A stretch of 64,000 nucleotides of DNA from Acidobacteriota bacterium (GCA_009840635.1 VXNL01000079.1:3782-67781), one strand, 5' to 3'; positions 1,865 through 44,148 are shown, numbered from the stretch's first letter. A program made the numbers and translations. The notes: a model not told the origin generated them from the letters alone.

Positions 1865-1866
1865 AC

Positions 1867-2403: not shown

Positions 2404-2407
2404 CACC

Positions 2408-3322: not shown

Positions 3323-3344
3323 CCAACCGTCGCGGAGCCCCCGG

Positions 3345-7955: not shown

Positions 7956-7975
7956 GGCGGGTCAACCCCGCGCCG

Positions 7976-8026
7976 TGCGCGGTGCGGAGCACCGCGGTGC
8001 CGGTCTGGAAACCGGCGTTCCAAGCC
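7976..8026 (-). repeat. REP-like element, family 1 (hairpin GCGGTGC-GGA-GCACCGC plus GTGCCGGTCTGGAAACCGGCGTTCCAAGCC)
   Basis: It lies in the convergent intergenic gap between the ALDH and tenA genes. The core ...CCGGCGTTCCAAGCC recurs at 26.1, 39.9, 42.7 and 49.2 kb. Confidence 0.7.
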
Positions 8027-8072
8027 GGCGCGCCATGCGGGCGCGGGGTATCCCCGTGCGGTTCCCGGGTCG

Positions 8073-8756: not shown

Positions 8757-8787
8757 GACGGAGGAATGCTAGTGCGGCGAATCGTCG

Positions 8788-10233
8788 CTACCCGAACACC
8801 ACCGGCACCCAGAAGACCGCGAACAGGCAGGTGAGGACCGCGCCGATGATGTTCACCCCGATGCCGGCGCGCACCATCTGAGGGATCGTGAAGTGTCCGG
8901 TTCCGAACACGATGGCGTTCGGCGGGGTGGCTGCGGGCAGCATGAATGCGCAGGAGGCGGCGACCGTCACCGGAAGCAGCAGCATCAGCGGCGGGATGCC
9001 GGCGCCCGTGGCGACGGCGGCCAGGATGGGCACCATCATCGCGGTCGACGCGAGGTTCGAGGCCAGCTCGGTGAGCAGGATGATGAACACCACCACCATG
9101 ATCACGAACAGCGGAAGCGGCAGCGCCGAAGCGCCGGCGAGACGGTCGCCCAGAAACTGGGACAGCCCGCTCACCTCCAGACCGTTCGCGAGCGAGAAGC
9201 CGCCGCCGATCAGGATCAGGACGTCCCAGGGAATCTTCACTCCCCATTCCCAGTTGAGGATGCGTTCCCCCGAGCCGTTCCCGGCGGGGACGAGGAAGCA
9301 CAGCACTGTCGCCGCCATGGCGATCGTGGAATCGCTGATGAGCCCGCCGGTCGGCAGGAACCCGGTCCAGACCGGGCGGAACATCCAGGCCAGGGCAGTG
9401 GCCCCGAACAGGACGGAGAGTCGCTTCTCCGGGGTGGAGAGCGGTCCGAGCGCCTGGTAGGCGGAGCGGACCGGCTCCCGGCCGCCGGGAATGTCCTTGA
9501 TCCGGATCGGAAACGCGACGCGGGTGAGCCAGAGCCAGGTCAGGGGGAGAAACAGGACCGTCAGCGGCATCGCGAAGGCGAGCCAGCGCACGAAGGTGAT
9601 CTGGATGTCCAGTTGCTCGCTCAGGAAACCGGCGAGGAACACGTTGGGCGGCGTTCCGATGAGGGTCGAGAACCCACCGATGGAGGCCCCGTAGGCGCAG
9701 CCGAGCATCAGGCAGACCGCGAACGGGAAATCCCCGGGGGCGGGCCGCCTGGGCCCGTGGACCGCCCTCGATATCTCCGCGATCACGGCGACCCCGATCG
9801 GCATCATCATCGCGGTGGTGGCCGTGTTGGAGACCCACATGGACAAGAACGCGGACGCCACCATGAAGCCGAGCACCAGCCGGGGAGGCGAGCTGCCCAT
9901 CGCCATCACCGTCCGGAGCGCGATCCGCCGGTGCAGGTTCCAGCGCTGCATCGCCTGGGCGATCATGAACCCGCCCAGGAAGAGGTACACGAGGTGGTTG
10001 GCGTAGGGCGCCGCCGCCCCCGCCGCGTTCGTGATCCCGAACGGCGGGAGGAGCGCCAGCGGCAACAGGGAGGTCACCGCCAGCGGCGCCGCTTCCGTAA
10101 CCCACCAGGTGGCCATGATCGCGGCCACCGCCAGCATCCGGCGCGCCTCGTCGGGAATGCCCGGGATCGGGACGACGGCGATGCCGACCAACAGGGCCAG
10201 CCCGAGGACGAGTCCGATCCGCTCGCGCTTCAT
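8788..10233 (-). CDS. DASS family (SLC13-like) sodium-coupled anion symporter
   Basis: A 481-aa polytopic membrane protein with the SNTATTAMMMP and PPNAIVFGTG hairpin motifs of DASS/CitT transporters. Confidence 0.85.
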   Translation of the reverse strand: MKRERIGLVLGLALLVGIAVVPIPGIPDEARRMLAVAAIMATWWVTEAAPLAVTSLLPLALLPPFGITNAAGAAAPYANHLVYLFLGGFMIAQAMQRWNLHRRIALRTVMAMGSSPPRLVLGFMVASAFLSMWVSNTATTAMMMPIGVAVIAEISRAVHGPRRPAPGDFPFAVCLMLGCAYGASIGGFSTLIGTPPNVFLAGFLSEQLDIQITFVRWLAFAMPLTVLFLPLTWLWLTRVAFPIRIKDIPGGREPVRSAYQALGPLSTPEKRLSVLFGATALAWMFRPVWTGFLPTGGLISDSTIAMAATVLCFLVPAGNGSGERILNWEWGVKIPWDVLILIGGGFSLANGLEVSGLSQFLGDRLAGASALPLPLFVIMVVVFIILLTELASNLASTAMMVPILAAVATGAGIPPLMLLLPVTVAASCAFMLPAATPPNAIVFGTGHFTIPQMVRAGIGVNIIGAVLTCLFAVFWVPVVFG

Positions 10234-10365
10234 CCGTTTGATCGTCGGAATTCGATGCCGGGCCGGGCGTTATCGCCGGCCGGGGGCGCGAGAGCGTATG
10301 CCATTCGGCCGGCAACGTGTCGTCCCCAAACCCCGAGGCGGCTGGGGCGGCGGCGTGGCCGGCCG

Positions 10366-13385: not shown

Positions 13386-15104
13386 TTGCAGCTCCTCGAC
13401 TGGATCGTCGTCGCGGCCTACTTCGGGCTGATCATCACCGTCGGCTACTGGACGGGGCGGGGGAACCGGGGCCTCGAGGACTACTTCCTGGCTCGCCGCT
13501 CGATGCCTTGGTACGCGATGGGCCTCTCGGTGATGGCCACGCAGGCGAGCGCCATCACGCTGGTGGGCACGACCGGCCAGGCCTACGTGGACGGGATGCG
13601 TTTCATCCAGATCTACTTCGCCCTGCCGATCGCCATGGTGATCCTGTGCGTCACCCTGGTGCCGCTGTTCTACCGGGCGAGGGTCTTTACCGCCTACGAG
13701 TACCTGGAGCGGCGGTGCGGTCCGCACACCCGGTCCCTCACCAGCCTGCTCTTCCTCTTCGGGAGGGCGCTTTCCGGGGCGGTGGTGATCTACGCGCCGT
13801 CGGTGGTCCTCTCGGTGGTCTTCTCGCTCGACGAGACGCTCACCATCCTGATCATCGGCGGCTTCGCCACGGTCTACACCGCGCTCGGGGGCATGCGCGC
13901 CGTGATGTGGGTCGAGACCTGGCAGATGCTGATCATCCTGCTCGGCATCCTGTTCTGCCTCGGGTCGGTCATCTGGGGGCTGCCCGACGAGGTGAGTCTC
14001 GGGGAGGCGCTGCGGCTCGCCGGTTCCACCGGCCGCCTGGAGACCCTGTCCTTCGACACCGACCCGCGCCAGACCTACACCGTCTGGACGGGGCTCCTCG
14101 GCGGGCTCTTCCTGATGCTCTCCTACTTCGGTTGCGACCAGAGCCAGGTCCAGCGCTATCTCACCGGGCGTTCGCTCCGCGAGAGCCGGCTTTCGCTGAT
14201 CTTCAACGCCTTCGCCAAGCTGCCGGTGCAGTTCGTGATCCTGCTCACCGGGGCGCTCCTCTTCGTCTTCTACCAGTTCGAAAGGCCGCCGGTGCTCTTC
14301 GATCCGGTGACGCTCGCCGAGACGCGCGCGGCCGAGCCCGAGGCGATGGCGGCCATGGAAGCCCGCTATGAGACCGCGTTCGCCGAACGCCGCACGGCCG
14401 CGCTCGACTACGCGGAGGCGGACGGCGGTTCCTCCGAGGCGGCGCTGAAGGAGCGCTACGTGGCGGCCGACCTGGCGTTCCAGGAGACGCGCGCCGATGC
14501 GGTCCGCACTGCGGCCGAGGTCAAGGGCGAACCCTGGACCGACACGAACCACGTGTTCCCGACCTTCGTGTTCACGCAGCTCCCCCCGGGGGTCGTCGGC
14601 CTGATCCTCATCGCAGTGCTCGCGGCGGCGATGTCCACCGTGGAGTCGGAACTGTCGGCGCTCTCGACCGCCAGCGTGGTGGACTTCTACCGCCGGTTCC
14701 GGAACCGATTCGTGCGTGGCCCCACGTCCGACCGCCATGACCTGATCGCGGGGCGGGTGGGGATCCTGTTCTGGGGGACGGTCGCCACCGGGGCCGCCCT
14801 GTACATGGGGAGGCTCGGGTCCGCGGTGGAAGCGGTGAACCGGGTGGGGTCCTTCTTCTACGGCCCCATCCTGGGGGCGTTCGTCCTCGCCGCCGTCTTC
14901 CCGAACCGGGGCGCTCGCCGCGCCTTCCCGGCGGTGATCTGCGGCGTCGCCGCCGTCTGGGCCGCGGACCTGGTCCCCCGGGCGCTCGGCATCGAGGGTG
15001 TTTCCTACCTCTACTACAACCTGATCGGAACCGCCGTCACCGTGGGGGTCGGTCTGTTTCTGGGGCGCTTGGGGGGCGATCCGCGGGAGGCCGGGATCCG
15101 ATGA
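13386..15104 (+). CDS. Sodium:solute symporter family (SSF) transporter
   Basis: A 572-aa membrane protein with SSF topology, using a TTG start per the ORF track. It has a large cytoplasmic loop. Confidence 0.85.
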   Translation: MQLLDWIVVAAYFGLIITVGYWTGRGNRGLEDYFLARRSMPWYAMGLSVMATQASAITLVGTTGQAYVDGMRFIQIYFALPIAMVILCVTLVPLFYRARVFTAYEYLERRCGPHTRSLTSLLFLFGRALSGAVVIYAPSVVLSVVFSLDETLTILIIGGFATVYTALGGMRAVMWVETWQMLIILLGILFCLGSVIWGLPDEVSLGEALRLAGSTGRLETLSFDTDPRQTYTVWTGLLGGLFLMLSYFGCDQSQVQRYLTGRSLRESRLSLIFNAFAKLPVQFVILLTGALLFVFYQFERPPVLFDPVTLAETRAAEPEAMAAMEARYETAFAERRTAALDYAEADGGSSEAALKERYVAADLAFQETRADAVRTAAEVKGEPWTDTNHVFPTFVFTQLPPGVVGLILIAVLAAAMSTVESELSALSTASVVDFYRRFRNRFVRGPTSDRHDLIAGRVGILFWGTVATGAALYMGRLGSAVEAVNRVGSFFYGPILGAFVLAAVFPNRGARRAFPAVICGVAAVWAADLVPRALGIEGVSYLYYNLIGTAVTVGVGLFLGRLGGDPREAGIR

Positions 15105-16846
15105 GCCGGTTCCGGACCCGCACGGTCTCCCGGATCGTCGAGGCGCTGTCCTCGCGGGAGATCCTGCGCCGCTCCGGCTTCTTCACCGGTCTCAACCTCG
15201 GGATCGGGGCGCTGGTGGGCGGCGTCATCGTGTCGTTCATCGTGGTGACCGAGTGGCTCGCCGACATCGTGGTCCACGGCCCGGCGCTCGGTGCGTTCCG
15301 CTTCGCCGCGCCCGTCCTCGGGGCCCTGGCCGCCGGATTCCTGATGCACCGCTGGTTCGAGGGGGCGCGGGGCAGCGGGATTCCCCAGACGAAGGCCGCG
15401 CTGGTCGCGAAGGACGGCCGGATTCCGTTCCGGGTGCCCTTCGGGAAGTACCTCTGCGGGGTCCTCACCCTGGGGAGCGGCATTCCGCTCGGACGCGAAG
15501 GACCGTCCGCGCAGATCGGCGCCGGGATCGCCTCCTCCGTGGGAGAGGCGCTGCATCTGGATACCGAGCAGCGCCGGCAGTTGGTACCCGTCGGGACCGC
15601 GGCGGCGATCGCGGCGGCCTTCAACACCCCGATCGCCGCGATCCTGTTCTCGCTCGAGGAGATCGTCGGCAACCTGCACGCCCGGGTGCTCGGCTCCGTC
15701 GTCCTCAGCGCCGTGGCGAGCTGGCTGGTGCTCCGCCTGTCGCTGGGCGACGAGCCGCTGTTCTCGGTTCCCGCCTACGAACTCGGGTCGCCCTGGGAAC
15801 TGCTCATCTACGCGGTGCTCGGCGTGCTCGGCGGGCTGATGTCGGTGGGCTTCGTGCGCGCGCTCCTCTGGCTGCGCGCCGCGTTCCGGCGGCTCCCGGT
15901 CTCGAGCCGCTGGTTCCAGCCGGCGCTCGGCGGTCTCGCGGTGGCCGCCGCCTGGGTCCTGCTGCCCGGGTTCTTCGAGGTCGGCTACGGCCCGGTGGGC
16001 CGGGCGCTCGCCGGTGAACTGTCCATGGGAACGATGGCGGTTCTGCTGGCCCTCCACCTGGCGCTGGTGGTCTTCGCCTACGCCTCGGGCAACGCGGGGG
16101 GGATCTTCGGCCCCAGCATCTTCCTCGGCGCCATGCTGGGAGGAGTCGTCGGCAGCCTCGCAAATACCTGGTTCGACTTCGCCTCCGGCCCGGGGGCCTA
16201 CTCCCTGGTCGGCATGGGGGCCGCCTTCGCCGGGATCCTCCGTGTGCCGATGGCGTCGGTCTTCATGATCTTCGAGATCACCCAGAGCTATGCGGTCATC
16301 GTGCCGATGATGATCGCCAACCTCACCTCGTTCTTCGTCTCCCGGCGGCTCCAGCGGGTGTCCGTTTATGAGGCCCTCGCCGCGCAGGACGGGATCCGGC
16401 TCCCGTCGACGGAGGACGAGGAGCCGCATCCGGTGGTCCGCGCGGCCATGCGCCCGCCGCGGGAGCTCCTCCCTCCGAGTCTTACCGTGGAGGACGCCAT
16501 CGAGCGGGTGGCGCTCAGCGGCAAGCGGGCCTGGCCGGTGGCGGAAGGCAACCGGATCTCAGGGCTGATCACGCTGGCCGAGCTGGAGCGGTGGCACGCT
16601 TGGGGCCAGGATCAGGAACGCCTCGGCGACCTCGTGCGCGGCCGGAAGTTCCCGCACGCGCACGCCGATCAGCCTATCGACCATGTGCTCGCGACGATGG
16701 GCCGGATCCGCATGGACACCCTGCCCGTGGTGAGTCGGGTAGACCTCCATCAGCTCGAGGCCGTCGTCACCGTCTCCGACCTGCTCCGGGCCTACGGCAT
16801 CGCGCCGGGGACGGGTGATGGCCCGCCCCGGGGCATCCCGGGATAG
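15101..16846 (+). CDS. ClC voltage-gated chloride channel / H+-Cl- antiporter with C-terminal CBS domains
   Basis: It carries the GSGIPLGREGP selectivity-filter motif and GIFGPS. The C-terminal region is CBS-like. The start overlaps the upstream stop as ATGA. Confidence 0.9.
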   Translation: MSRFRTRTVSRIVEALSSREILRRSGFFTGLNLGIGALVGGVIVSFIVVTEWLADIVVHGPALGAFRFAAPVLGALAAGFLMHRWFEGARGSGIPQTKAALVAKDGRIPFRVPFGKYLCGVLTLGSGIPLGREGPSAQIGAGIASSVGEALHLDTEQRRQLVPVGTAAAIAAAFNTPIAAILFSLEEIVGNLHARVLGSVVLSAVASWLVLRLSLGDEPLFSVPAYELGSPWELLIYAVLGVLGGLMSVGFVRALLWLRAAFRRLPVSSRWFQPALGGLAVAAAWVLLPGFFEVGYGPVGRALAGELSMGTMAVLLALHLALVVFAYASGNAGGIFGPSIFLGAMLGGVVGSLANTWFDFASGPGAYSLVGMGAAFAGILRVPMASVFMIFEITQSYAVIVPMMIANLTSFFVSRRLQRVSVYEALAAQDGIRLPSTEDEEPHPVVRAAMRPPRELLPPSLTVEDAIERVALSGKRAWPVAEGNRISGLITLAELERWHAWGQDQERLGDLVRGRKFPHAHADQPIDHVLATMGRIRMDTLPVVSRVDLHQLEAVVTVSDLLRAYGIAPGTGDGPPRGIPG

Positions 16847-16971
16847 TTTTGTTCGGAACGATGGTCAGCCCAGGCACGGGTTTCGCTGTTCTATTGACTT
16901 TGCGCCGTCCATGGCGTTGACAGCAATGACCAAACCAGCTTGCCGATCCACTGATTTCGAGGGAATTCAAC

Positions 16972-17481
16972 ATGACATCACCTTCACTCCTGGAAAAGGC
17001 AACGGATGTTCCCAAGATGATTGCCATGCAAGCAGTCAAGCCCTTGCGTCTCATGTTGCGTGAGCCGTTGGATTACCCAAACACTCAAGGAGAGCTGGCT
17101 GCTTTGGTGGACAACGCGCTTGCTCATGAGATCCGTGCCGGGTTTACGCACCGCTTCATCACCTTGTTGTTCGTCACCGTGGGTGAGCGGGTGTTCTGTC
17201 GTCGCTACCAATACACCGAACCATCGTGGCACAGCGTGTTCCGAGCCAATCCGGCAGGTCAGATAAGGCTCGACAAGACCGTTGTAAACATCACGGCCCA
17301 GGTTCCAGACGATCTGAGCGACACCCTTCCGGCCATTGATGCGAGCTATGCAGCCAAGCTCAAACAGCTGGGCGCGCGTTTTCTGTTGGAAGGAGCGGTG
17401 GAACCGCGAGCCCAGGAAAGCACGCTGGAACTGATGCTGGCGCCCGGGCCGGCGATCACCGACCGGATCGACAGACAGTGA
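16972..17481 (+). CDS. DUF2255 family protein (split-barrel / PNPOx-like)
   Basis: The core VTVGERVFCRRYQYTEPSWHSVFRANPAGQIRLDKTVVNITAQV and the C-terminal IDASYAAKL match the DUF2255 pattern. It lies in a roughly 56% GC patch. Confidence 0.55.
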   Translation: MTSPSLLEKATDVPKMIAMQAVKPLRLMLREPLDYPNTQGELAALVDNALAHEIRAGFTHRFITLLFVTVGERVFCRRYQYTEPSWHSVFRANPAGQIRLDKTVVNITAQVPDDLSDTLPAIDASYAAKLKQLGARFLLEGAVEPRAQESTLELMLAPGPAITDRIDRQ

Positions 17482-17527
17482 GCGGAGGGGAGCAACACAT
17501 GAGCGTGGCTGTCCCGCTGGCTGCAAC

Positions 17528-18010
17528 GTGATCGCTGCCGTCCAGCGGGTCTCTCGCGCCTCGGTCGCGGTGGAGGGGGAACTCGTCTCCGAGATCGGCG
17601 AGGGACTTCTGGTGCTGCTCGGGGTGTCCGTCACCGATACCGCTGGGGACGCCGCCTGGCTCGCGAAGAAGATCGCCGGGCTCCGGATGTTCCGGGCGCC
17701 CGAGGGGGAGCCGGAGCGGAGCGTGCTCGAAATCGGCGGGGAGGTGCTCGCGGTGTCGCAGTTCACCCTGCTCGGGAACTGCCGCAAGGGGCGGCGTCCG
17801 TCCTTTACCCGCGCCGCTCCGGGGCCGGAAGCCGAAGCGCTCTACGAGGAGTTTTGCGCCCGGCTGCGGGAACTCGGAGTTCCGGTGGGCACCGGCCGCT
17901 TCGGGGCGATGATGGAGGTCTCGCTGGTGAACGACGGGCCCTACACCCTGCTCGTCGAGAGTCCCGGCGGCTCCACGCGGCGGGGTATCCTTTCCGCTTC
18001 TCGCGAATAG
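17528..18010 (+). CDS. dtd: D-aminoacyl-tRNA deacylase
   Basis: It starts MIAAVQRVSRASV and carries the SQFTL motif. A GTG start overlaps the stop of a 10-codon uORF. Confidence 0.85.
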   Translation: MIAAVQRVSRASVAVEGELVSEIGEGLLVLLGVSVTDTAGDAAWLAKKIAGLRMFRAPEGEPERSVLEIGGEVLAVSQFTLLGNCRKGRRPSFTRAAPGPEAEALYEEFCARLRELGVPVGTGRFGAMMEVSLVNDGPYTLLVESPGGSTRRGILSASRE

Positions 18011-24769: not shown

Positions 24770-26041
24770 GTGACCCAACCGAGCGGCGGCGAGGCCCTCC
24801 GGATCTACGAGAAGACGCTCGCCTGTGTCCACTGCGGTCTCTGCCTGCCGGCGTGTCCCGCCTACGAGAACGCGCCGCGCGAGTCGCTCGCCCCGCGCGG
24901 GCAGGTCTTCAACGCCCGCGCCCTGCTGGAGGGCCGGCTGCCCGCGAGCGACGGCCTGGCGGAGGACCTCTACGAGTGCCTCGCCTGCCGCGGCTGCGAA
25001 AGCGTCTGTCCGGCGGGAGTGGAAGTCGGCGCCATCGTCGAGGGAGTCCGGGGGCTGCTGGACGAGGAAGCGGTCGAGCCGCGCCGGGTGCGGGTGCTGA
25101 AACGGTTCGCGCTCGGGGTGGTGGTGGCCCGGCCCGCGGTCCTGAAAGCGGCGATGTGGCTGCTCCGGTTTACGGGGCGCATCGGCCTTCGCCGGCTCGT
25201 GCAGCCGGTGCTGGCCCGCCTGGCGCCGAAGCTCGCGGCGCGGGAACGGTTGCTCCCCGACGTCCCGGCGCGGGAGCGTTTCCCGGCGCGGATCTCCCCG
25301 GGCGGCGAAGCGCGCGGGACGGTGGCGCTTTTCCTCGGCTGTGTCGCGCCGCATCTCCGGCCGGAAACCAGCCGGGCGGCGATCGAGGCGCTCGTCGCGA
25401 ACGGCTGGGAGGTGGTGATTCCCAGGGAGCAGGGATGTTGCGGCGCGCTCCATCTCCACGCCGGCCTGCCGGATCTGGCGCGGGGGCTGGCGCGCCGGAA
25501 CCTGGCGGCGTTTCCGGACGACCTTCCGGTGGTGACCACCGCCGCCGGCTGCGGCGCCGCGCTCTCGGAATACGGTGAGCTTCTGGACGCTGAACTACCC
25601 GCTGATGTTTTCTCGCGGCGGGTGACGGACGTCTCGGCGTTCCTCGCGGAGAGCGGCTGCCGCCCGCCCGCAGCCGGCCCCCGGGAGACGCCGCTGCGGG
25701 TCGTCTACGACGCGCCCTGCCATCTCTTCCACGCCCAGCAGGTCCGCGAGGAGCCGCTCCGGATCCTCCGCAGCCTGCCGGGCGTGGAGCTCGTCACCGT
25801 GCGTGACCCCGAGCGCTGCTGCGGCTCCGCCGGGATCTACAACGTGACCCGGCACGACACCTCAATGGCGGTCCTCGACCGGAAGATGGCGAACATCGCT
25901 CCCGCGGATCCCGACCTCATCGCCACCGGGAACATCGGCTGCCAGCTCCAGCTGGCCGAGGGCGCCCGGCGCGCCGGGATAAGCGCGGAGGTCGCCCACC
26001 CGGTCGAACTCCTCGCGGACGCCTACCGGCGGGAGAAATAG
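24770..26041 (+). CDS. glcF: Glycolate oxidase iron-sulfur subunit GlcF
   Basis: Two 4Fe-4S ferredoxin motifs are present (CVHCGLCLPACP and CLACRGCESVCP). It also has CCG domains (CCGSAG). A GTG start is used. Confidence 0.9.
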   Translation: MTQPSGGEALRIYEKTLACVHCGLCLPACPAYENAPRESLAPRGQVFNARALLEGRLPASDGLAEDLYECLACRGCESVCPAGVEVGAIVEGVRGLLDEEAVEPRRVRVLKRFALGVVVARPAVLKAAMWLLRFTGRIGLRRLVQPVLARLAPKLAARERLLPDVPARERFPARISPGGEARGTVALFLGCVAPHLRPETSRAAIEALVANGWEVVIPREQGCCGALHLHAGLPDLARGLARRNLAAFPDDLPVVTTAAGCGAALSEYGELLDAELPADVFSRRVTDVSAFLAESGCRPPAAGPRETPLRVVYDAPCHLFHAQQVREEPLRILRSLPGVELVTVRDPERCCGSAGIYNVTRHDTSMAVLDRKMANIAPADPDLIATGNIGCQLQLAEGARRAGISAEVAHPVELLADAYRREK

Positions 26042-26070: not shown

Positions 26071-26117
26071 GGCTTGGAACGCCGGCTTCAGCCGGCACAG
26101 CCCGCCGAAGGCGGGCG
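26071..26117 (+). repeat. REP-like element, family 1 (GGCTTGGAACGCCGGCTTCAGCCGGCACAGC plus CCGCCGAAGGCGGG hairpin)
   Basis: This is the left arm of an inverted doublet with the copy at 26190-26235. Confidence 0.8.
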
Positions 26118-26248: not shown

Positions 26249-27811
26249 CTACCGCCCCTTTCGCGGCAGCTTCTCGTCCGCCATCGCCGCGTGGTAGACG
26301 AACGCCGCGACCACCACCGCGTTCTTCTTGAGGTCGTCGATCGGCAGGGTGTCGTAGAAGTCGAGGTTCGTGTGGCCGCCGGTGCCGCCGACCCGCGCCT
26401 GCAGGAACTGGAAGCCCGGCAGGCCCGCGTCGTCGAACGCCACGTGGTCGGTGCTGCCCACGCTGGCGGGCGCCAGCGTCGTCATCCCGAAGTCGTGGAA
26501 CGGCGCCATCCACGCTTCGAAGATCGGCCGCACGTGCTCGTTCTCCTGGAGCCAGACGCCCCGGTAGCGGCCGGGGCCGTAGTCCTGGTTGAAGTACGCG
26601 GAGACGTTGTCGTAGCCGGGTTTCGTCCCCGTCTCGGGGTCGCCGAAGTGCTGCTTCACGTAGGCCCGCGACCCGAAGATGCCCTGCTCCTCGCCGGACC
26701 AGAGCGCGATCCGGATCGTCCGGCGCGGCTCGGCGCCGACCGCCTTCAGGATGCGCATCGCCTCCAGCATCACCGCCACTCCCGAGGAGTTGTCGCTGGC
26801 GTTCGGGCTCGCGTGCCAGGTGTCGAAGTGGGCGCCCAGCATCACCAGCTCGTGGGCGAGGTCGGTCCCCGCGATCTCGCCCAGGACGTTCCGGGCCTCG
26901 CTCGCCGCCTCGCCGTGCCGGTTCCGGACCTCGAGCTCGATGGTGACGGGGACTTCGCGCCGCCGGATCCGGTACATCCGGTTGTAGTGCTCCGGGGTGA
27001 CCGCGATGATCGGCACCGAAGACAGGGTCGCCTCCCTGTCCCACATGTCCACCTTGGCGCCGGGGCGGGCGAACCCGCGCACCGCGCCCGGCCAGCCGCT
27101 CCGTGACTCGAGTACTGCGGCGGCTCCCTCGTCGACGTAGAACTGGAGTCGTTCGAAGGGGCTCAGGACGTCCGGGTGCGGCGGCAGGTCCGCGTACTCG
27201 CTCGTGAAGAGCGGGTCCGTCGCCAGCCTCGGCAGCACGTTCGCCGCGAGCTGCTCCATCGCCTCGTCGGTGCGTTCGGGCGTCCCGGTGGCGAAGCGGG
27301 TCCGGTCCACCGCCGCCGGGGGCGTCGAGAGGACCGCCTTGCCGTGGAGCTTCCCGCGCAGGGCGTCGAGGTCGCCCCGCGTCCGGACGTCGGCGATGAC
27401 GACCTCCAGCGTTTCAGGGCCTTCGGTCCCCGGCGTGTGGGCGATGGGGTAGCCGACGAGCGTCTGGTACACCGGCTCCCGCATGTGGAGCGAGAAGTAG
27501 TCGTTGTCCCAGCTCGCCCCGTAGTTCATGAAGGGCTCGCGGACCGTGTTCACGAGCCCGATCTCGGCCATCTCCTCGAGCAGCCACTGCTGGGCCCGGT
27601 CCATCGCCGCCGAGTTGGTGAGCCGGCCGCCGATCACGTCGGTCATGTAGGAGAGGGTGTCGGGAAGCTGCGACCGATGAAGTCCCTCCTCCCGGATCTT
27701 CGCGATCATCTCCCGGTCCACGGGGAAGGGATCCTGGGCCGCGGCGGCGGTGGTGACGCCGAAGACCGCAGCCGCACCCGCGATCGACGCCCGGATCAGG
27801 TACTGCCTCAT
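26249..27811 (-). CDS. M28-family secreted aminopeptidase with PA domain
   Basis: It has a signal peptide and Zn ligands in the HFDTWHA...DNSSG and EEQG motif context. Length is 520 aa. Confidence 0.85.
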   Translation of the reverse strand: MRQYLIRASIAGAAAVFGVTTAAAAQDPFPVDREMIAKIREEGLHRSQLPDTLSYMTDVIGGRLTNSAAMDRAQQWLLEEMAEIGLVNTVREPFMNYGASWDNDYFSLHMREPVYQTLVGYPIAHTPGTEGPETLEVVIADVRTRGDLDALRGKLHGKAVLSTPPAAVDRTRFATGTPERTDEAMEQLAANVLPRLATDPLFTSEYADLPPHPDVLSPFERLQFYVDEGAAAVLESRSGWPGAVRGFARPGAKVDMWDREATLSSVPIIAVTPEHYNRMYRIRRREVPVTIELEVRNRHGEAASEARNVLGEIAGTDLAHELVMLGAHFDTWHASPNASDNSSGVAVMLEAMRILKAVGAEPRRTIRIALWSGEEQGIFGSRAYVKQHFGDPETGTKPGYDNVSAYFNQDYGPGRYRGVWLQENEHVRPIFEAWMAPFHDFGMTTLAPASVGSTDHVAFDDAGLPGFQFLQARVGGTGGHTNLDFYDTLPIDDLKKNAVVVAAFVYHAAMADEKLPRKGR

Positions 27812-37713: not shown

Positions 37714-38352
37714 GTGAGACCCGAAACCGCCAGCGCGGAGGCACCCGGGCCGGCCGTGGACCGCGAACGGCTCGCGTCGGCGGTCGAGGCGCTGCTCTTT
37801 TCCCACGGGGCGCCGGTCACGGGCGAACGCCTCGCCGAAGTGCTCGAGACCGGCCTGAAGGAGGTGCTCGCCGCCCTCGACGAGCTGGAGGTGCGGTATG
37901 CGGCCCTGGAGTCCGGGCTGCGGCTGGCCCGGATCGCGGGAGGCTTCCAGCTCACCACCCGGGCGGAATGGAAGGGCGCGATCGAGCGTCTCATCGCGCC
38001 GAAGCGGGAGCAGGCGCTGACCGAGGCGGCCCTCGAGGCGCTGTCCGTCATCGCCTACCGGCAGCCGATCACCTTGCCGGAGCTGAACGAGATCCGCGGG
38101 GTGAACTCCCACAGCGTGGTCACCACCCTCATGAAACACCGCCTGGTCCGCTCCCGGGGGCGCAAGCAGGTCGTCGGACGGCCGCTCCTCTACGGGACCA
38201 CGAAGGATTTCCTCGAGCGATTCGAGCTCGACCGGCTGGAGGACCTGCCGAAGCTCGGCGAATTCGAAGAGGCGCTGGCGTCGGCCGCGCCCGTTCCGAT
38301 GGAATCCGAAGTCGGGGAGCCTGGCGCCGATCCCGCCGAGGTCTCCGAATGA
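37714..38352 (+). CDS. scpB: Segregation and condensation protein B
   Basis: Winged-helix ScpB motifs are present (LEALSVIAYRQPITLPELNEIRGV). Confidence 0.8.
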   Translation: MRPETASAEAPGPAVDRERLASAVEALLFSHGAPVTGERLAEVLETGLKEVLAALDELEVRYAALESGLRLARIAGGFQLTTRAEWKGAIERLIAPKREQALTEAALEALSVIAYRQPITLPELNEIRGVNSHSVVTTLMKHRLVRSRGRKQVVGRPLLYGTTKDFLERFELDRLEDLPKLGEFEEALASAAPVPMESEVGEPGADPAEVSE

Positions 38353-39812
38353 CCGCCGAGCGGCTCCAGAAACTGATCGCGGCTGCCGGGATCGCCTCGC
38401 GGCGCGCCGCGGAACGGATGATCGCCGAGGGCCGGGTCACCGTGGACGGGGAGGTGGTCGGCGTTCCCGGGGTGCGCGCGGACCCGGCGCTCCAGGACAT
38501 CCGGGTGGACGGAGCCCGGCTCCGCAAGCTCGGCAAGCCCCGGCGCTACGTGATTCTCAACAAGCCCATCGGCCACCTGACGACCCGCTCGGACCCGGGA
38601 CGCCGTTCCACGGTGATGGATCTGCTGCCCCATTCGTTCCGCTCGCTGGTTCCGGTCGGGCGGCTCGACGGCAACAGCTCGGGACTCGTGCTGCTCACCG
38701 ACGACGGGGAGCTGGCGCAGCGGGTCACGCATCCGCGGTACCGGCTGCCGAAGACCTACTACGCCACCGTCCGGGGGCTTCCCGCCGAAGACGTGCTCGA
38801 GCGGGCGCAGCGCGGCGTCCGCGTCGATGGCGAGGGGCTGCGGCTCGACCAGGTCGAGGTCATCGCCCGTTTCCCGCACCGGGCGGAGTCGAAGCGCCGC
38901 GCGCGTCTCCGGGTCACCCTGCGGGGCGGGCGGAACCGGGAGATCCGGCGGGTGCTGAGCGTCCTGGGCCATCCGGTCCTCGAGCTGCACCGGACCCGGA
39001 TCGGCTCTCTCGCCGACACCGGGCTCACCCCCGGGGGCTGGCGCAAGCTGCGCGGCGACGAGGTGGACGAGTTGCGGGAGTTGATCCGGCGGTGCGCGGG
39101 CGAGCCGGCGGCGCCCGCCGAACCGGCTGATTCGGAACCGGCAGTTCCTGCCGCCCGGCCCGCGGCCGCGGCATTCGTGGTGGCGATCGACGGGCCGGCG
39201 GGGTCCGGCAAGACGTCCGTGGCGCGCGCGGTCGCCGAACGTTTCGAACTCGGTTACTTCAACACCGGGGCGTCGGTGCGCGCGGTGGCGCTCGCGGCGA
39301 TGCGGCAGGACATGGATCTCGACGAAGGCCCGTCCCTCAGGACCCTCGCCTTCCGGGTGATCCTCGATCCGGAAGGCCGCGTCTTCCTCGACGGCGAAGA
39401 TGTCTCCCAGGCCGTCCGCGCGCCCGAGGTCTCCGCCGGCGCCTCCCGCGTCGCCGTCCACCCCGAGCTGCGCGAGGTCCTGGTGGAGCGTTGGCGGCAG
39501 TTCGCGGCGGGCGGCGGCGTGGTCGAGGGCCGGGACATCGGCACTGTGGTCTTCCCCGAGGCGCCGGTGAAGGTCTTTCTGGACGCGCGGCCGGAGATCC
39601 GGGCCCGGCGCCGCTCCTCGGACGAGGGAGACCGCGACGTGGGCGCCGTCCAGTCCGAACTCCGCCACCGTGACCACACCGACTCCGGCCGGGCGGTGGC
39701 TCCCCTCCGCCGGGCGGAGGACGCCCACCATCTCGACACCAGCGACCTCACGCTCGAGGAAACGGTGGAGCGGGTGGCGGAACTGGTGGAAACGGCGCGA
39801 TCTCAAGCCTGA
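38349..39812 (+). CDS. In-frame fusion: S4-domain RluB/RsuA-type pseudouridine synthase plus cytidylate kinase
   Basis: The N-terminal half carries an S4 domain and a pseudouridine synthase catalytic region (VGRLDGNSSGLVLLTDDG). A Pro/Ala linker follows. The C-terminal half carries the Cmk P-loop (AIDGPAGSGKTSVARAVAERF). A single 487-aa ORF has no internal stop. Confidence 0.75.
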   Translation: MTAERLQKLIAAAGIASRRAAERMIAEGRVTVDGEVVGVPGVRADPALQDIRVDGARLRKLGKPRRYVILNKPIGHLTTRSDPGRRSTVMDLLPHSFRSLVPVGRLDGNSSGLVLLTDDGELAQRVTHPRYRLPKTYYATVRGLPAEDVLERAQRGVRVDGEGLRLDQVEVIARFPHRAESKRRARLRVTLRGGRNREIRRVLSVLGHPVLELHRTRIGSLADTGLTPGGWRKLRGDEVDELRELIRRCAGEPAAPAEPADSEPAVPAARPAAAAFVVAIDGPAGSGKTSVARAVAERFELGYFNTGASVRAVALAAMRQDMDLDEGPSLRTLAFRVILDPEGRVFLDGEDVSQAVRAPEVSAGASRVAVHPELREVLVERWRQFAAGGGVVEGRDIGTVVFPEAPVKVFLDARPEIRARRRSSDEGDRDVGAVQSELRHRDHTDSGRAVAPLRRAEDAHHLDTSDLTLEETVERVAELVETARSQA

Positions 39813-39816
39813 CGCT

Positions 39817-39900
39817 CCGAGCGCCGGCCTCTACTGCGCCGGGAGGCGCCGCCGGCTTGGAACGCCGGCTTCAGCCGGCACAGCGGCCCGCAGGGCCGCG
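39817..39900 (+). repeat. Composite REP: degenerate family-2 element (GAGCGCCGGCCTC...) followed by a family-1 unit (GGCTTGGAACGCCGGCTTCAGCCGGCACAGC plus GGCCCGCAGGGCC)
   Basis: It starts 5 nt after the rluB-cmk stop. It forms the left boundary of the low-GC island. Confidence 0.75.
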
Positions 39901-40094
39901 GGCGACGTGCCGTCATTTGCCTTGGGCGACTGAGGTCCGGGAACGTTCCGCCTGCTCGTTTGGACCGAGAGAAGCCCCTCTTCCGACAGGTCAGCGTTGC
40001 GACGCCATTGATTTATCGAATGTCCAGGACGGGTTCGAGTGTCCGAATGTCGATTCCCGTGTCGGAGACCTCCCGCGCGACGTGAGGCCAACAA

Positions 40095-40637
40095 TCAAAA
40101 GGCATCCGCTTCGGGCAACCGCAGAATGCTCCAATTCTCCCGATAGGCGTCAAGCCAGCCCGATCGATACCGATCAAGCGTCTTCCTTCCTTTCTCCGTG
40201 ATCGGCTTGATGTTCGAGTAGTCGGGTAACAGCCGACGCACGTCGCTGTCCTTGTGTGGCTGACCTGCTTTGCCGGGAGTGTCGAGCCACACTTGGTGGC
40301 AGTCGCGAATACAGGCCGCCACCACGCTGGAGGGAAGGACGTAGCAAACCGTCGTATCGGACGGCTGTTTGCCGACGTCGACTAAGACGTAGAACAGATC
40401 GTCGGCGACCATGGTCGCGTGCCTAGCCCTCATGTGCCAGCCCTTGTCGCCTCCGATGCCACGTCGCGTCTTTACTTGGATGGCACACAACTTCTTGGAG
40501 TTCTTGTCGGTGACCAGGATGTCCATGTTCGGTGCCCCATCCGGTGCGAGGGCCGCAATCCAGCCACGCCGCAACAACTGACTGAGCACGTGATACTCGC
40601 CGGCGGCGCCGACGATAGTCGAACTGATCTTGTGCAT
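40095..40637 (-). CDS. Mrr-cat / PD-(D/E)xK-like (Hjc-like) nuclease-fold protein
   Basis: GAAGEYHV (E), NMDILV (D) and CAIQVK (QxK) are spaced as in Mrr/Hjc catalytic cores. It lies in a lower-GC patch. The ATG at 40635 is preferred. The track ORF extends to 40700. Confidence 0.55.
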   Translation of the reverse strand: MHKISSTIVGAAGEYHVLSQLLRRGWIAALAPDGAPNMDILVTDKNSKKLCAIQVKTRRGIGGDKGWHMRARHATMVADDLFYVLVDVGKQPSDTTVCYVLPSSVVAACIRDCHQVWLDTPGKAGQPHKDSDVRRLLPDYSNIKPITEKGRKTLDRYRSGWLDAYRENWSILRLPEADAF

Positions 40638-40748
40638 CGGGTCAGAGCGGTCCTTCAGGCGGAGGTTCAACGGTACGGGGTTCTGACGCCAGTGAGGCAC
40701 AGAACAGGACGTCCACCCCGAGCGTGGCGCGCCTCCCGAGGCTTTGAA

Positions 40749-41303
40749 TCAGGACGAACGCCTCGATGCGGGCCCGAAGAGACTCCCCGGGGCCGCTTTC
40801 TGCGCATCGGCGCCGTTGCTGTCGAGAACGAAACGCGCCCGCTCGGCACGTAGCATGGCAAAGGGCGTCACGCATTTGACGCCGAGACCGATGCATACGT
40901 TGGGGATCTTGATTCTCCTTGGTGTATCGGCGGGCACCTCGTGCGTTACGACCGCGTGTCCCCCGGTCAGGGCCTGACCGACCAAGTAGTAGTCGGCGGC
41001 CTGCAGGAACGAGTTGATCGCCGCCGGGTCGTACGACTGCTCCCTTACCCATTCGCTTACTCGTTCCAATGACGGCAAGTCGGCTGCCTGAGGCAGGACG
41101 AAGAACTCCGGACCTCGCTGCTTGGCCCACTCCCGAAGTTCGTCGTCCGAGGCACCGATTTCGTCGCCCACTTTGTCGATACTGCGCACCAGCCCGCGGG
41201 CGTGGCCGACCACGATCCAATCCCAGAAGCCAGGACAGAAGTCGAAACCGTAGTGAAGGTTCTTCGCAGCGATCAGGACATTGGCGTCCAGGAGGTAGGC
41301 CAT
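40749..41303 (-). CDS. DUF4411 PIN-like domain protein (putative toxin/effector)
   Basis: The N-terminal MAYLLDANVLIAAKN is a PIN motif, followed by GFWDW. Downstream acidic residues lie in ADYYLVGQAL...VVTHE, then KIPNVC. The start overlaps the upstream gene stop (TGATG). Confidence 0.6.
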   Translation of the reverse strand: MAYLLDANVLIAAKNLHYGFDFCPGFWDWIVVGHARGLVRSIDKVGDEIGASDDELREWAKQRGPEFFVLPQAADLPSLERVSEWVREQSYDPAAINSFLQAADYYLVGQALTGGHAVVTHEVPADTPRRIKIPNVCIGLGVKCVTPFAMLRAERARFVLDSNGADAQKAAPGSLFGPASRRSS

Positions 41304-42451
41304 CAGGAAGTCAGGCCCAGGCGGCGGCTCAGTTCGTTGAAGGTCGCCATCTTGCGGAACCCGAGAAGGCGGAAGGCCTCCGTGTAGGACGAGCGGCCTT
41401 CCAGGGTGGCCCCGACGACGGCCCGGGCGAACTGCTTGCTGACCCGGGCGCCGATGCTCCTGTAGAAGTCGCCGCCGGAGTCACGGGCCACGGCGCGGAG
41501 CCTGTCGAGTTCTTCGTCGTAGGCGTTCCAGTACTCCTGCCGGGTGAGGGCGCCGAGTTCGTGGAGACGTCGTAGCACCACCAGCGTGCTCACCTTGAAG
41601 TGGCGGGCGAGTCGCGTGGCCTCTGCCGGAAGTGGCGCGCTGGGGCGATACTCCGCTCGCACCAGCCGGATCGGGGCCAGGATTTCCGCCGCCACCTGGT
41701 TGCAGAAGCGCTCCGTCTCGTGATCGGGGATGACGCGGTCCTGACTGTCGGAGAGCGCCGTTTCTCCAAGCCAGACATGAGCCAACTCGTGGGCTAGCGT
41801 GAACATCTGGGCCGACTTCGAGTCCGCTCCGTTCACGAAGATGACCGGCGCGAGATCGTCCACCAGAGCAAAACCGCGGAACTCCCGGAAGTCCAGCCGG
41901 CGGCGCGTGTTGCTCCCGACCACGCCGCTGACCATGACGAGCACCCCGAGGCTGTTGGCCTGTTCAACGAAGAGCCGCAGTGCCGCGGTCCACGTTGCGA
42001 GGCGGCGCCGTTCTTCGAGGTCGAACCGGAGCGCGGCGCGGATCCGATCGGCCACTCCCTCGACATCGTCCGAACGGCTCACCGAGCCGACAAAGTCCAG
42101 CGGCGCTTCTCCGTCCGTACGGGCGTTGTCGCGGTACCACGCCTGCCGTTGCTGGCAGAGGTAGATCGTGTCCAGCAGGTCGGCGCTGGGCCGGGCGACA
42201 GGTTTGTCAGCGATGGTGCGGAAGTCCGGGATGGGAAGGCGCTCCTCCGGCGGTTCGGGGAGGAAGAAGAAACCGATCGGGGTGCGCGAAGCCTTGGCAA
42301 AGCGTTCCAACTGTCTGAGCGTCGGGTTCTCCGCGCCGCGTGCCCAGGCCGGGAACGCCGGAAAACGCTGCGCCAGGGTCTCGGGCTCAAGGCGGCCGCG
42401 TTCGCACGCCCAGCGGAGTACACCGGCGTGGACGGGTATGCGCACAGTCAT
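41303..42451 (-). CDS. HTH (XRE-like) domain fused to an ImmA/IrrE-family (M78, COG2856) zinc metallopeptidase
   Basis: It carries the HEXXH motif HELAHVWLGE. The N-terminal helix-turn-helix region spans PTLRQLERFAKASRTPIGFF. Length is 382 aa. Confidence 0.75.
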   Translation of the reverse strand: MTVRIPVHAGVLRWACERGRLEPETLAQRFPAFPAWARGAENPTLRQLERFAKASRTPIGFFFLPEPPEERLPIPDFRTIADKPVARPSADLLDTIYLCQQRQAWYRDNARTDGEAPLDFVGSVSRSDDVEGVADRIRAALRFDLEERRRLATWTAALRLFVEQANSLGVLVMVSGVVGSNTRRRLDFREFRGFALVDDLAPVIFVNGADSKSAQMFTLAHELAHVWLGETALSDSQDRVIPDHETERFCNQVAAEILAPIRLVRAEYRPSAPLPAEATRLARHFKVSTLVVLRRLHELGALTRQEYWNAYDEELDRLRAVARDSGGDFYRSIGARVSKQFARAVVGATLEGRSSYTEAFRLLGFRKMATFNELSRRLGLTS

Positions 42452-42642
42452 GGGAAGCTATTGCCGAGGGCGCGACATGGGCCGTTCGATAGTTCCTTCA
42501 TGTGGGCTATTCGCTCGACACCGGGGCTGCTCACCGGGGTAAGCCCCCGGGGATCGTATTCTGCCGAAGCAACCGGAGTGAGCTGTTCCCGCGCATTCGC
42601 GACGGAATCGGAAAAGCCCATTCCTTCGAGCGCGGCCAGCCT

Positions 42643-42692
42643 GTTTCGCCCGCCTTCGGCGGGCTGTGCCGGCTGAAGCCGGCGTTCCAAGC
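42643..42692 (-). repeat. REP-like element, family 1, inverse orientation (CCGCCTTCGGCGGG hairpin plus GTGCCGGCTGAAGCCGGCGTTCCAAGC)
   Basis: It is the reverse complement of the 26071 unit. It forms the right boundary of the low-GC island. Confidence 0.8.
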
Positions 42693-42732
42693 TGTTGCGC
42701 CACTACGGCCCGTGGCGGCCGGCCGCGTCTTC

Positions 42733-44148
42733 CTACGGTGCGGCGGGCCGCTGCGCGACGAGGTGTCCGATCGAGTTGGCGTAGTAGTCCACGAAGTGGC
42801 GGCGCGGTTCCAGGATCCGTAGACGCCCCTCGTCGGCCTTCACCATCTGTCGCTGGATGAGAAGTTGCAGGCCGAGTTCGACCGCCGGCTCCCAGTCATC
42901 CCGGGGGATGTCGGGCTCGCCGGGGCGGGCCGCCAGCGTCTCCAGGATCTCGAAGGCGGCGGCCCGTGCCTCGGTCCTCGTGACGCCATTGTCGCCACGG
43001 TCGCGAATGACCGTTGCCATCAGCGGTACCGGGAGCACCGGCATGATGTCCGCGATGCGCCGCATGAGGTCGTCGGCCAGCACCCCCACCTCGGCGAAGC
43101 GTTCCTCGCGGTCGACCGCCCGCGGGTCGAAGTCCCGACTCCGTAGCCACTCCCGGAGCGAGACCGGTGCGCCCACGCTGAGGGTCGCATGGCCGAAGGG
43201 CTTCCAACGGCGGTTGAGCCGTAGCCAGAACTGGTGGCCCACGAACGCCGCGGTCGCTCGCCAGGATCCGAACCGTGTCGCCCGTTTGCCGCTGGCCTTC
43301 ATGATCTGGAGGTTCTTGTCTTCGATGACCCGGTCGTAGTTCACCGCCACCGGCACGAACGCCACGTCGCGGCCCGTTTGGGGGTCGAAGGACCGCACCG
43401 CGTAGTCGAGGAGGCCGAGGCGGGGGTTTCTGAGCTTCCCGTCTTCCGAGAAGCGTCCCTCGATGAAAAAGGCCTGTGGTACGCCGGCGCCGATGGCGGT
43501 CTTCACGTGGGCGGCGAGCACGGCCCGGTAGAGGGGATTCCCGGACCCCCGGCGGACGAAGAAGCCGCCGAGGGCGCGGAGGAAGCCCTCAAGAGGCCAG
43601 TAGCGCGCCCACTCGCCCACCGCGAAGGAAAGGATGGCCCGGTCCGCGAGGGAGGTAGCCGCGATCACGTAGTCGAGGTTGCTGCGGTGATTGAGGACGA
43701 AGACCGGGGTGGAGGTACGGGCGGCCCGCACGATCGCCCCTTCGTCCGCGTAACGGACCCGCACGCGGAAGAGATTCAGCATGGTCCGCTTCACCGGACC
43801 GTGAATGACCCGAAAATAGAGTCCGGCGCTGAGTGAGGGAACGATCTCCCGGGCGTAGTTCCGCGCCTCTGCCAGTGCGTCGCACTGGTCGGTTTCGCTC
43901 CGCTCCGCCTCCTTGACAATCGCATCCTGCACGAGCGGGTCCACCATCAGCAGGTCGGCCGTGCTCGTCGGCTTCAGGAGCTGGAAGGCGGACGGCTGGA
44001 TCGCGAGCCGACCCTGCGCCTCGTGGAAGGCGTGCGCGTTGCGCCGCTCGCTGCGCCGCCGCCAAAGTGGCCGAACGACCAATCCGTAGAGGCATCCGGC
44101 CACCAGCAGCGCGAGAACGGGAAGCGGAACGGAAACGGATTCGAACAC
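42733..44148 (-). CDS. PlsB-like glycerol-3-phosphate acyltransferase (GPAT family)
   Basis: Acyltransferase motif I HRSNLDY is present, along with FIEGRFSEDGKL and VPVAVNYDRV. It has an N-terminal TM helix. The GTG start at 44146-44148 was chosen because the longer ORF overlaps proS. Confidence 0.7.
   Translation of the reverse strand: MFESVSVPLPVLALLVAGCLYGLVVRPLWRRRSERRNAHAFHEAQGRLAIQPSAFQLLKPTSTADLLMVDPLVQDAIVKEAERSETDQCDALAEARNYAREIVPSLSAGLYFRVIHGPVKRTMLNLFRVRVRYADEGAIVRAARTSTPVFVLNHRSNLDYVIAATSLADRAILSFAVGEWARYWPLEGFLRALGGFFVRRGSGNPLYRAVLAAHVKTAIGAGVPQAFFIEGRFSEDGKLRNPRLGLLDYAVRSFDPQTGRDVAFVPVAVNYDRVIEDKNLQIMKASGKRATRFGSWRATAAFVGHQFWLRLNRRWKPFGHATLSVGAPVSLREWLRSRDFDPRAVDREERFAEVGVLADDLMRRIADIMPVLPVPLMATVIRDRGDNGVTRTEARAAAFEILETLAARPGEPDIPRDDWEPAVELGLQLLIQRQMVKADEGRLRILEPRRHFVDYYANSIGHLVAQRPAAP

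Follow-up and report, generated by a model that had tools for sequence, protein, structure and literature searches.

The antitoxin–toxin pair VapBC52 of Mycobacterium tuberculosis (PDB 9vzy and 9vzz) consists of a toxin, VapC52, which is a DUF4411 protein of the PIN type that cleaves transfer RNAs (tRNAs), and an antitoxin, VapB52, whose N-terminal domain binds the VapC52 dimer and whose C-terminal domain occludes the toxin active site (PMC13273310). Single-stranded DNA (ssDNA) activates the HEXXH peptidase of VapB52, upon which the antitoxin cuts itself at an FR motif at the junction of its N-terminal and middle domains, and a Cys-switch residue, C229, occludes the Zn site; the D6A mutant of VapC52 is inactive, and the pair confers phage resistance in M. 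smegmatis (PMC13273310). Matelska et al. (2017, PMC5499597) had already predicted a three-component toxin–antitoxin (TA) system in which a fused helix-turn-helix (HTH)–DUF955 (COG2856) gene lies upstream of a DUF4411.1 gene. Here we describe a locus with exactly this two-gene architecture in a 64,000-nucleotide stretch of DNA, referred to below as the window, from a metagenome-assembled genome (MAG) of an Acidobacteriota bacterium (GCA_009840635.1, VXNL01000079.1:3782-67781). The segment under study, at positions 39,817 to 42,692, carries the pair, denoted genes A and B, followed by a third gene, C. It very probably brings together, in a small composite patch between convergent housekeeping genes of this Acidobacteria MAG, two units that were acquired separately: A–B, which on sequence criteria appears to be a VapBC52-type TA or abortive-infection module, a kind already characterised, and C, a predicted nuclease gene. 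The A–B–C arrangement is a chance neighbourhood and not a three-gene system, and the region could plausibly serve in defence. The features of the segment are:

41303-42451, minus strand: gene A, a putative antitoxin/sensor of 382 amino acids (aa) in which an HTH-like domain at the N-terminus is followed by a Zn-peptidase of the M78 (ImmA/IrrE) type and a C-terminal domain; VapB52 homolog
40749-41303, minus strand: gene B, a putative 184-aa toxin of the DUF4411 PIN-like type; VapC52 homolog
40095-40637, minus strand: gene C, a predicted 180-aa stand-alone PD-(D/E)xK nuclease, independent of A–B
40063-40681, minus strand: the C cassette, comprising the open reading frame (ORF), a leader of ~45 nt and a tail of ~20-30 nt, the leader reaching ~40732 in some comparisons
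42452-42652, minus strand: the 5' non-coding region of the A–B operon, with the presumed promoter and operator

A probable two-gene toxin–antitoxin module

The three co-directional minus-strand ORFs were placed here by a first-pass annotation made from the sequence alone, and were recovered at the same positions; they bear the NCBI names ‘ImmA/IrrE family metallo-endopeptidase’ (A), ‘DUF4411 family protein’ (B) and ‘hypothetical protein’ (C). The window was placed in NCBI assembly GCA_009836105.1. That annotation had described A as an HTH protein with a HEXXH peptidase of the M78 family, and this is borne out by a match to the Pfam model PF06114 (Peptidase_M78) at 1.4e-15, by the motif HELAH at residues 221-225 with E247 as third Zn ligand, and by a collinear alignment with PDB 9vzy_A over residues 7-348 of 382 (phmmer E 3.8e-23). 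The HTH-like domain is supported by this collinear match and not by Pfam, no HTH model of which was found in A at E<=1, and residues DFR 76-78 of A align with the DFR of 9vzy_A. The position of the VapB52 Cys-switch is occupied in A by Ser234, its cysteines being residues 16, 99 and 250. Further matches of A were to phrog_2439 ‘transcriptional regulator’ (3e-42), to 12 PADLOC RmrA models (best 1.6e-13, mostly over the peptidase region only), to PADLOC capP (6.6e-14, on the peptidase domain) and to the IrrE structures 3dte and 8slm. The description of B as a DUF4411 PIN-like protein is upheld by PF14367 (DUF4411; 2.3e-49), alongside matches to PDB 9vzy_D (2.8e-7) and 9vzz_A (5.1e-7); B keeps the catalytic Asp6 and matched no PADLOC RmrT model.

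The pairing of A with B is conserved well beyond the window. Searches through B found 16 other A–B loci, on four annotated plasmids and 12 viral or prophage contigs, and at every one of them an A homolog abuts the start of B, and none holds a C homolog. On the four plasmids, where the B homologs are 36-61% identical to B, a 380-388-aa gene annotated as ‘XRE family’ or ‘ImmA-IrrE’ overlaps a ~165-aa DUF4411 gene by 4 bp, and the gene that comes after B differs from one to the next: an Abi protein in a type I restriction–modification (R-M) operon, an opposite-strand hypothetical protein (on two plasmids) and a Tn3 transposase. A–B is a fixed two-gene module. The first-pass annotation regarded the architecture at this locus as having no assigned mechanism, a statement overtaken by the description of the A–B type in 2017 (PMC5499597) and the characterisation of VapBC52 in 2026 (PMC13273310).

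The closest A–B pair from a cultured organism (L031; 57% and 61% identity) is on the Acetobacter vaccinii plasmid NZ_CP043507.1 (1-7480), where the pair and an Abi-family gene are inserted into a type I R-M operon, with hsdS on one side and hsdR on the other.

Within the window, the stop of A and the start of B share one nucleotide, as TGATG, an overlap which had been noted earlier and is read directly in the sequence. The 5' non-coding region of the operon (42452-42652) shows ~93% mean column identity in a three-sequence alignment of the window with its close relatives L003 and L026, which singled out no operator, and a promoter scan of the island gave no match to the sigma-70 consensus. Terminator-like sites occur in the island at about chance frequency, and Rfam gave no match at E<=1 across 39300-43000.

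Independence, spread and possible role of gene C

With its start at ATG 40637, C is separated from B by a spacer of 111 bp; an alternative start at GTG 40700 would give a 201-aa C and the 48-bp distance reported in the first-pass annotation. The start at ATG 40637 is backed by an alignment of 54 homologs, nearly all of which are 180 aa long and begin MxKISST. As the gap is 111 bp and not 48 bp, C is not translationally coupled to B, and the translational coupling that had been proposed for all three genes therefore stands for A–B, with its TGATG overlap, but not for C, which may still share a transcript with B by read-through.

The C loci considered here comprise 24 from a scan of reference genomes and ten further loci (L030, L035-L038, L039-L041, L054 and L055), among which L039-L041 are viral contigs and L054-L055 are plasmids. 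The 24 scan loci, whose source MAGs are assigned to Acidobacteria, Gamma- and Alphaproteobacteria, Vicinamibacteria and Gemmatimonadetes by their labels, have 48-100% best-segment identity to C, with 62-93% for most full-length copies. A and B stand near C at only two of the 24 (L003 and L026), both of which share the flanking genes of the window, and no A–B pair was found at the ~32 other C loci. An all-against-all comparison of ORFs within +/-3.5 kb likewise returned no conserved partner gene for C outside its syntenic relatives. When the window copy was compared with other phyla by blastn, similarity ran from 40678 to 40087 (L004) and from 40681 to 40063 (L007) and then stopped. MAFFT alignment of the flanks revealed that the window, L007 and L036 share weaker leader similarity reaching as far as ~95 nt upstream, as well as a conserved cassette tail, TGATTGCTGGCCTCACGCTG. 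Because the leader similarity extends upstream of C, most of the 111-bp B–C spacer belongs to the C cassette; no flank similarity was found between unrelated C loci. These borders suggest that C is a self-contained cassette of ~0.62-0.66 kb, which would move between genomes alone.

It is against this background that a lineage-specific three-gene system has to be considered, in which C would have been recruited beside A–B, either as a second effector under A or as a nuclease whose ssDNA triggers the self-cleavage of A. The arguments for it are that A, B and C share one orientation with just 111 bp between B and C, that a terminator scan of the island predicted no terminator in this spacer, that the intact trio occurs on several contigs of the lineage (L001, L002 and L057), and that VapB52 is activated by ssDNA, which a nuclease could produce. 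We nevertheless regard such a system as highly improbable, since C has a conserved leader of its own that is common to copies in other phyla, since some 32 C loci lack A–B and all 16 A–B loci lack C, and since within the lineage B has been inactivated in three ways and C lost twice while A persists. The new three-gene module proposed by the first-pass annotation is thus not sustained: the trio was found only at the syntenic locus, and outside that lineage the three genes did not co-occur, the outcome that the same annotation had named as grounds for taking their adjacency to be fortuitous. What appeared to be a new three-gene defence architecture is thereby removed as a false lead.

Considering what C itself might be, sequence searches gave little. 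No Pfam model matched it at E<=1, the comparison with NCBIfam and PDB sequences returned only a weak match to PRK14689 (0.0033) and chance-level PDB matches, and the profile of its family found nothing among PDB sequences at E<=10. A confident AlphaFold2 model was built with 54 homologs (predicted local distance difference test, pLDDT, 90.5; predicted template modelling score, pTM, 0.87). Its top Foldseek match was 2ost, the structure of I-Ssp6803I, ahead of Hjc, EcoRV and the nuclease domain of SPARDA, which ranked second, and against BFVD it matched only generic PD-(D/E)xK proteins and unnamed phage proteins. The core E14...D39...Q54-V55-K56 is well preserved: the 54 close homologs show no variation at E14, D39, V55 and K56 and at least 90% conservation at Q54, and in 65 distant members V55 and K56 remain invariant, with E14, D39 and Q54 each conserved to at least 90%. 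Model, structural matches and core together confirm the PD-(D/E)xK fold which the first-pass annotation had assigned to C, despite the lack of a Pfam nuclease model. Its ‘Mrr-like’ label, on the other hand, is not supported, as none of the 65 family members matched the Mrr_cat, DUF4365 or Hjc models at E<=0.01. PF11645 (PDDEXK_5) was matched by only three of the 65 distant relatives (best E 9.2e-5) and not by the window copy itself, and the nearest relatives of C would be I-Ssp6803I and PDDEXK_5. Nuclease activity is predicted for C with high confidence, and it is probably a metal-dependent PD-(D/E)xK DNA endonuclease, in the structural neighbourhood of I-Ssp6803I and Hjc, that would act as an oligomer. 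Membership of the PADLOC family TmtA was also considered (E 0.0055-0.0099 for the window protein; three of the 65 relatives, best 2.3e-4) and rejected, the matches being taken as a shared fold. An exhaustive profile search gave 2,303 representatives of the C family at 50% clustering, 855 at E<=1e-10, and most are single-domain proteins of 150-190 aa.

How this gene moves is a further question. The GC (guanine plus cytosine) content of C is below that of the host locus at all 20 loci examined, and no integrase or repeat was found to accompany C as a cassette. Its neighbourhood contained no intron RNA at 12 loci and no tRNA at 19, the matches to transfer-messenger RNA (tmRNA), 6S RNA and riboswitches in L004, L015 and L020 being kilobases away, and tblastn of C gave no match in phage GenBank records. 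Degraded or interrupted copies are present in L019, L021 and L023-L026. These features bear on the idea that C is a selfish, free-standing gene resembling those of homing endonucleases, one that would cut a long target in genomes lacking C and be copied in during repair. This would account for a lone gene spreading without a recombinase, and it agrees with the PDDEXK_5 matches of the distant relatives, with a one-gene cassette of ~0.65 kb with sharp homology borders and neither repeats nor recombinase, with spread across phyla at 62-93% identity and GC always under that of the host, with the many degraded or interrupted copies (as a cycle of invasion and decay predicts) and with the tight fit of C between housekeeping genes in L038 and L027. 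We nonetheless consider it unlikely, because the insertion sites share no flanking sequence or neighbouring gene, unlike those of site-specific homing, C lies outside introns and inteins with no intron RNA or tRNA near, non-selfish nucleases (Hjc, PvuII and others) occupy the same structural neighbourhood, and C is frequently embedded in defence islands.

A few individual loci deserve mention here. In L021 (6001-7448) C is split into residues 1-99 (6001-6297) and 90-180 (7176-7448), with an insertion of ~880 bp between the two parts. The chromosome OZ253541.1 carries both a full-length C (L014, at ~3.41 Mb) and a 70-aa fragment (L024, at ~4.14 Mb), from which it follows that the cassette was inserted more than once in one genome. 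In L040 (4648-5498; IMG/VR UViG_2773857666_000002) a viral or prophage contig, a 168-aa C homolog with 47% identity comes after tail-fibre-like genes, and a 115-aa ORF upstream of it runs 4 bp into its start; this ORF could be a partner gene in a phage version of C.

The defence-island setting of C takes several forms. In L005 (153-10951) a C homolog of 81% identity lies between the DISARM genes DrmMI (153-4175, E 0) and DrmA (7565-10951, 2e-270); in L006 C is 430 bp from a type IIG enzyme, and in L014 a gap of 77 bp separates it from a type IIG/I-like enzyme downstream. A 1,182-aa ORF of L013 (2460-6543) with a weak match to LmuB, the Lamassu SMC ATPase, extends to 6005, beyond the position (6001) at which the C homolog starts, so that the two overlap, and C may have been recruited there as the effector of a Lamassu-like system. 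Other copies are found near a PD-T4-6/mad6-like kinase (L020), amid SIR2, AbiEii, ThsB-TIR and an M78 peptidase (L036), after an AAA_15/21 ATPase (L035), near Abi_2, an SMC-like ATPase and three integrases (L037), and near insertion sequence (IS) elements and an SMC/Schlafen pair (L030). Covering 198 ORFs in the neighbourhood of C at 25 loci, a census added Thoeris ThsA/ThsB, BREX PglX, MADS, Dsr1, AriA, PDC-S01 and PDC-M50.

From these neighbours alone, a stand-alone defence-type nuclease is the most likely role of C, at a little under an even chance, with the balance divided between the selfish homing-type gene and other roles, such as repair or junction resolution. We put forward more tentatively a broader picture, in which C belongs to an uncharacterised family of ~2,300 clusters of single-gene nuclease cassettes of ~0.65 kb, mobile across phyla (Acidobacteria, Gamma-/Alphaproteobacteria), plasmids and prophages without a recognisable recombinase, repeats or intron, and settling preferentially in defence islands; its members would be either new single-protein anti-phage nucleases or a new kind of free-standing homing-type selfish gene that targets defence loci. 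The family is widespread and unannotated, has no Pfam or PADLOC model and recurs in DISARM, R-M, Thoeris and Lamassu-like neighbourhoods; a phage-challenge screen could reasonably include it, and a family model could be added for it.

Composition, repeats and decay at the locus

The low GC content that first set the segment apart is real but shallower than had been reported. At 0.643-0.646, against a window mean of 0.697 (standard deviation (sd) 0.017 at that scale), it is the lowest-GC stretch of 2.4-2.9 kb in the 64-kb window, ~3 sd under the mean; it amounts, however, to 64-65% over 2.7 kb and not to the 57-58% of the first-pass annotation, values of 58-59% being reached only by gene C and its surroundings. 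Gene A has a GC content of 67.4% and a GC content at third codon positions (GC3) of 0.83, compared with 0.86-0.89 in adjacent genes. No integrase or transposase was found among the ORFs inside the segment, in agreement with the earlier statement.

That annotation had also proposed that the segment is bracketed by inverted copies of a repetitive extragenic palindromic (REP) element. The two copies are:

39855-39894, plus strand: REP-like double-hairpin on the 3' side of the rluB-cmk-type ORF, a convergent gene that stops at 39812 and whose orientation it shares
42653-42692, minus strand: REP-like double-hairpin on the 3' side of the acyltransferase gene, which stops at 42733 and whose orientation it shares

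The 40-nt inverted arms exist as proposed and are 90% complementary, but they belong to a class of dispersed 3' elements whose layout is repeated elsewhere in the window. The 64 kb contain the 21-nt REP core five times without a mismatch, against 0.01 expected by chance, and the second hairpin varies among copies yet stays self-complementary in every one. The copy at 39859 (plus strand) starts ~45 bp past the stop of the plus-strand ORF of pseudouridine-synthase/cytidylate-kinase type, and that at 42668 (minus strand) is ~40 bp past the stop of the minus-strand acyltransferase gene; the copies are inverted because the flanking genes are convergent and each REP follows the orientation of its own gene. 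A second inverted pair, at 26076 (plus strand) and 26210 (minus strand), lies between the convergent ORFs 24770-26041 (plus strand) and 26249-27811 (minus strand), its copies only ~130 bp apart. As the core is dispersed and the same inverted layout recurs at a second convergent gene pair, the bracket is not specific to the A–B–C segment, and the REP copies are ordinary dispersed 3'-end elements of the flanking convergent genes, not island termini.

That the whole 2.9-kb segment is one mobile island ending at the inverted REP copies can hardly be credited, even though highly complementary arms stand at both edges and the GC content between them is low. The five exact cores, the position of each copy ~40 bp past the adjacent housekeeping stop in the orientation of that gene, and the closely spaced second pair all speak against it; so do the differences between A, B and C in GC, GC3 and identity to L003 (93%, 63% and 93%, respectively), and the segment was not found as a block at any other locus.

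The same REP family was also seen in L025 (4900-5120), on a Vicinamibacteria MAG chromosome, with up to 96% identity over 48 nt, so that it is shared among Acidobacteriota lineages. Two contigs, L056 (from ~4874) and L057 (from ~6100), are 99.7% identical to the window up to the REP 3' of C, where similarity ends at position 39853, and beyond this point L056 carries a sigma-70 factor gene and a MacB-type gene; the REPs at these junctions are either breakpoints of strain-level rearrangement or joins made in metagenome assembly.

Among close relatives of the window, the three genes are preserved to different degrees:

Window, L001, L002 and L057: A intact, B intact, C intact
L003: A 93% identical; B frameshifted after ~codon 17, 63% identical; C 93% identical
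L026: A intact; B deleted (window 41294-40182, 1,113 bp); C residues 153-180 only
L056: A identical; B a 44-codon stub (window 41171-39948 deleted, 1,224 bp); C absent

B has thus been hit by three independent lesions, two of which removed C as well, and A is intact throughout. The contig L056, 1.9 Mb long and covered 71x, shares its sample with the intact allele L057 (8x); the 90% cluster of B also holds products of 54 and 143 aa on megabase contigs. This pattern would fit decay of the toxin with retention of the antitoxin, and not selection on a three-part unit. The lineage appears to offer a view of a VapBC52-type module in decay, with intact and deleted alleles in one sample, which bears on how such modules are maintained. 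L026 and L056 were considered as empty sites and rejected as secondary deletions, and no site with the convergent genes but without A–B and C was obtained.

Two observations concern other parts of the window. The lowest-GC 543-bp stretch of the window (0.551) is at 16851-17500 and holds a 169-aa ORF (16972-17481, plus strand), which has a ClC-channel-like gene (15101-16846) on one side and a D-Tyr-tRNA-deacylase-like gene (17528-18010) on the other; this region may be another small foreign insert. The flanking ORF at 37968-39812 (plus strand) is an apparent one-frame fusion of a pseudouridine-synthase region (RluB-like, with an S4 domain) and a cytidylate-kinase region (GPAGSGKT motif), and its real start is probably internal.

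Proposed mechanism and comparison with described systems

By homology to VapBC52, B would be a PIN-fold RNase that cleaves tRNAs, held in check by A, whose HTH-like N-terminal domain would bind the B dimer and whose C-terminal domain would cover the active site. A build-up of ssDNA, during phage replication or after DNA damage, would cause the Zn-peptidase of A to cut A at the FR linker (DFR 76-78), and this self-cleavage would free B and lead to translation arrest. It seems likely that a mechanism of this sort holds for A–B. Since A has Ser234 in place of the Cys-switch residue, its auto-inhibition may differ from that of VapB52, and this natural serine at the reported position provides a ready-made test of the VapB52 activation model.

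Several points weigh against the account given here of two independent units and their roles. The Cys-switch residue of VapB52 is not conserved in A, identity to VapBC52 is low (E 2.8e-7 for B), and both the substrate (tRNA) and the trigger (ssDNA) may differ in A–B. C lies directly downstream of B on the same strand with no predicted terminator in the spacer, so that co-transcription by read-through is possible in this lineage. Most of the comparison genomes are MAGs, and frameshifts and breakpoints at repeats could therefore be assembly artefacts. The association of C with defence islands is an impression rather than a measured enrichment, and some copies lie between ordinary metabolic genes, as in L027 and in L038, where the spacers are 78 bp and 16 bp. 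The account as a whole, moreover, rests on computation.

Among described nucleases, I-Ssp6803I (PDB 2ost; PDDEXK_5) occurs mainly in cyanobacteria and is encoded by a group I intron that sits within a tRNA gene. C, in contrast, is a free-standing gene with neither an intron nor a tRNA in its vicinity, and it has ~60 aa extra at its C-terminal region. No sequence-level membership was found for C in the families of the archaeal Hjc resolvases, NhoI/Eco15I, PvuII/EcoRV or the SPARDA DREN nuclease domain, and its copy in the window has no adjacent methyltransferase or Argonaute partner.

For A–B, the wider comparison is with other systems built around an M78/IrrE-type peptidase. The CapP/CapH, ImmA/ImmR and IrrE/DdrO switches share this peptidase fold with A, and CapP is also activated by ssDNA, but their proteases cut a separate repressor, whereas VapB52 has its HTH domain fused to the peptidase and cleaves itself, as A would too. 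The phage-defence TA class RosmerTA (RmrT/RmrA; Millman et al. 2022, 10.1101/2022.05.11.491447; PMC10440598) resembles A–B in having an antitoxin with HTH and ImmA/IrrE Zn-peptidase domains and a variable toxin, and A–B would fit in this broader class, although the toxin of Gordonia phage Kita depolarises membranes (PMC10440598) and B is a predicted PIN RNase. The system of Matelska et al. has the same architecture as A–B; its ‘three components’ are three domains (HTH, protease and nuclease) in two genes, with no third gene like C (PMC5499597). With respect to VapBC52, sequence identity is low, C229 of VapB52 is replaced by Ser234 in A, and the host of A–B is an uncultured Acidobacteria MAG in whose sister strains the toxin is decaying; cleavage of tRNAs, triggering by ssDNA and defence against phage, reported for the M. 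tuberculosis system, are predictions for A–B. The two have in common an antitoxin gene that comes first and overlaps the toxin gene, an antitoxin of ~380-415 aa with an HTH-like domain, a HEXXH Zn-peptidase and a C-terminal domain, an FR motif at the domain linker, and a DUF4411 PIN toxin with the catalytic Asp6.

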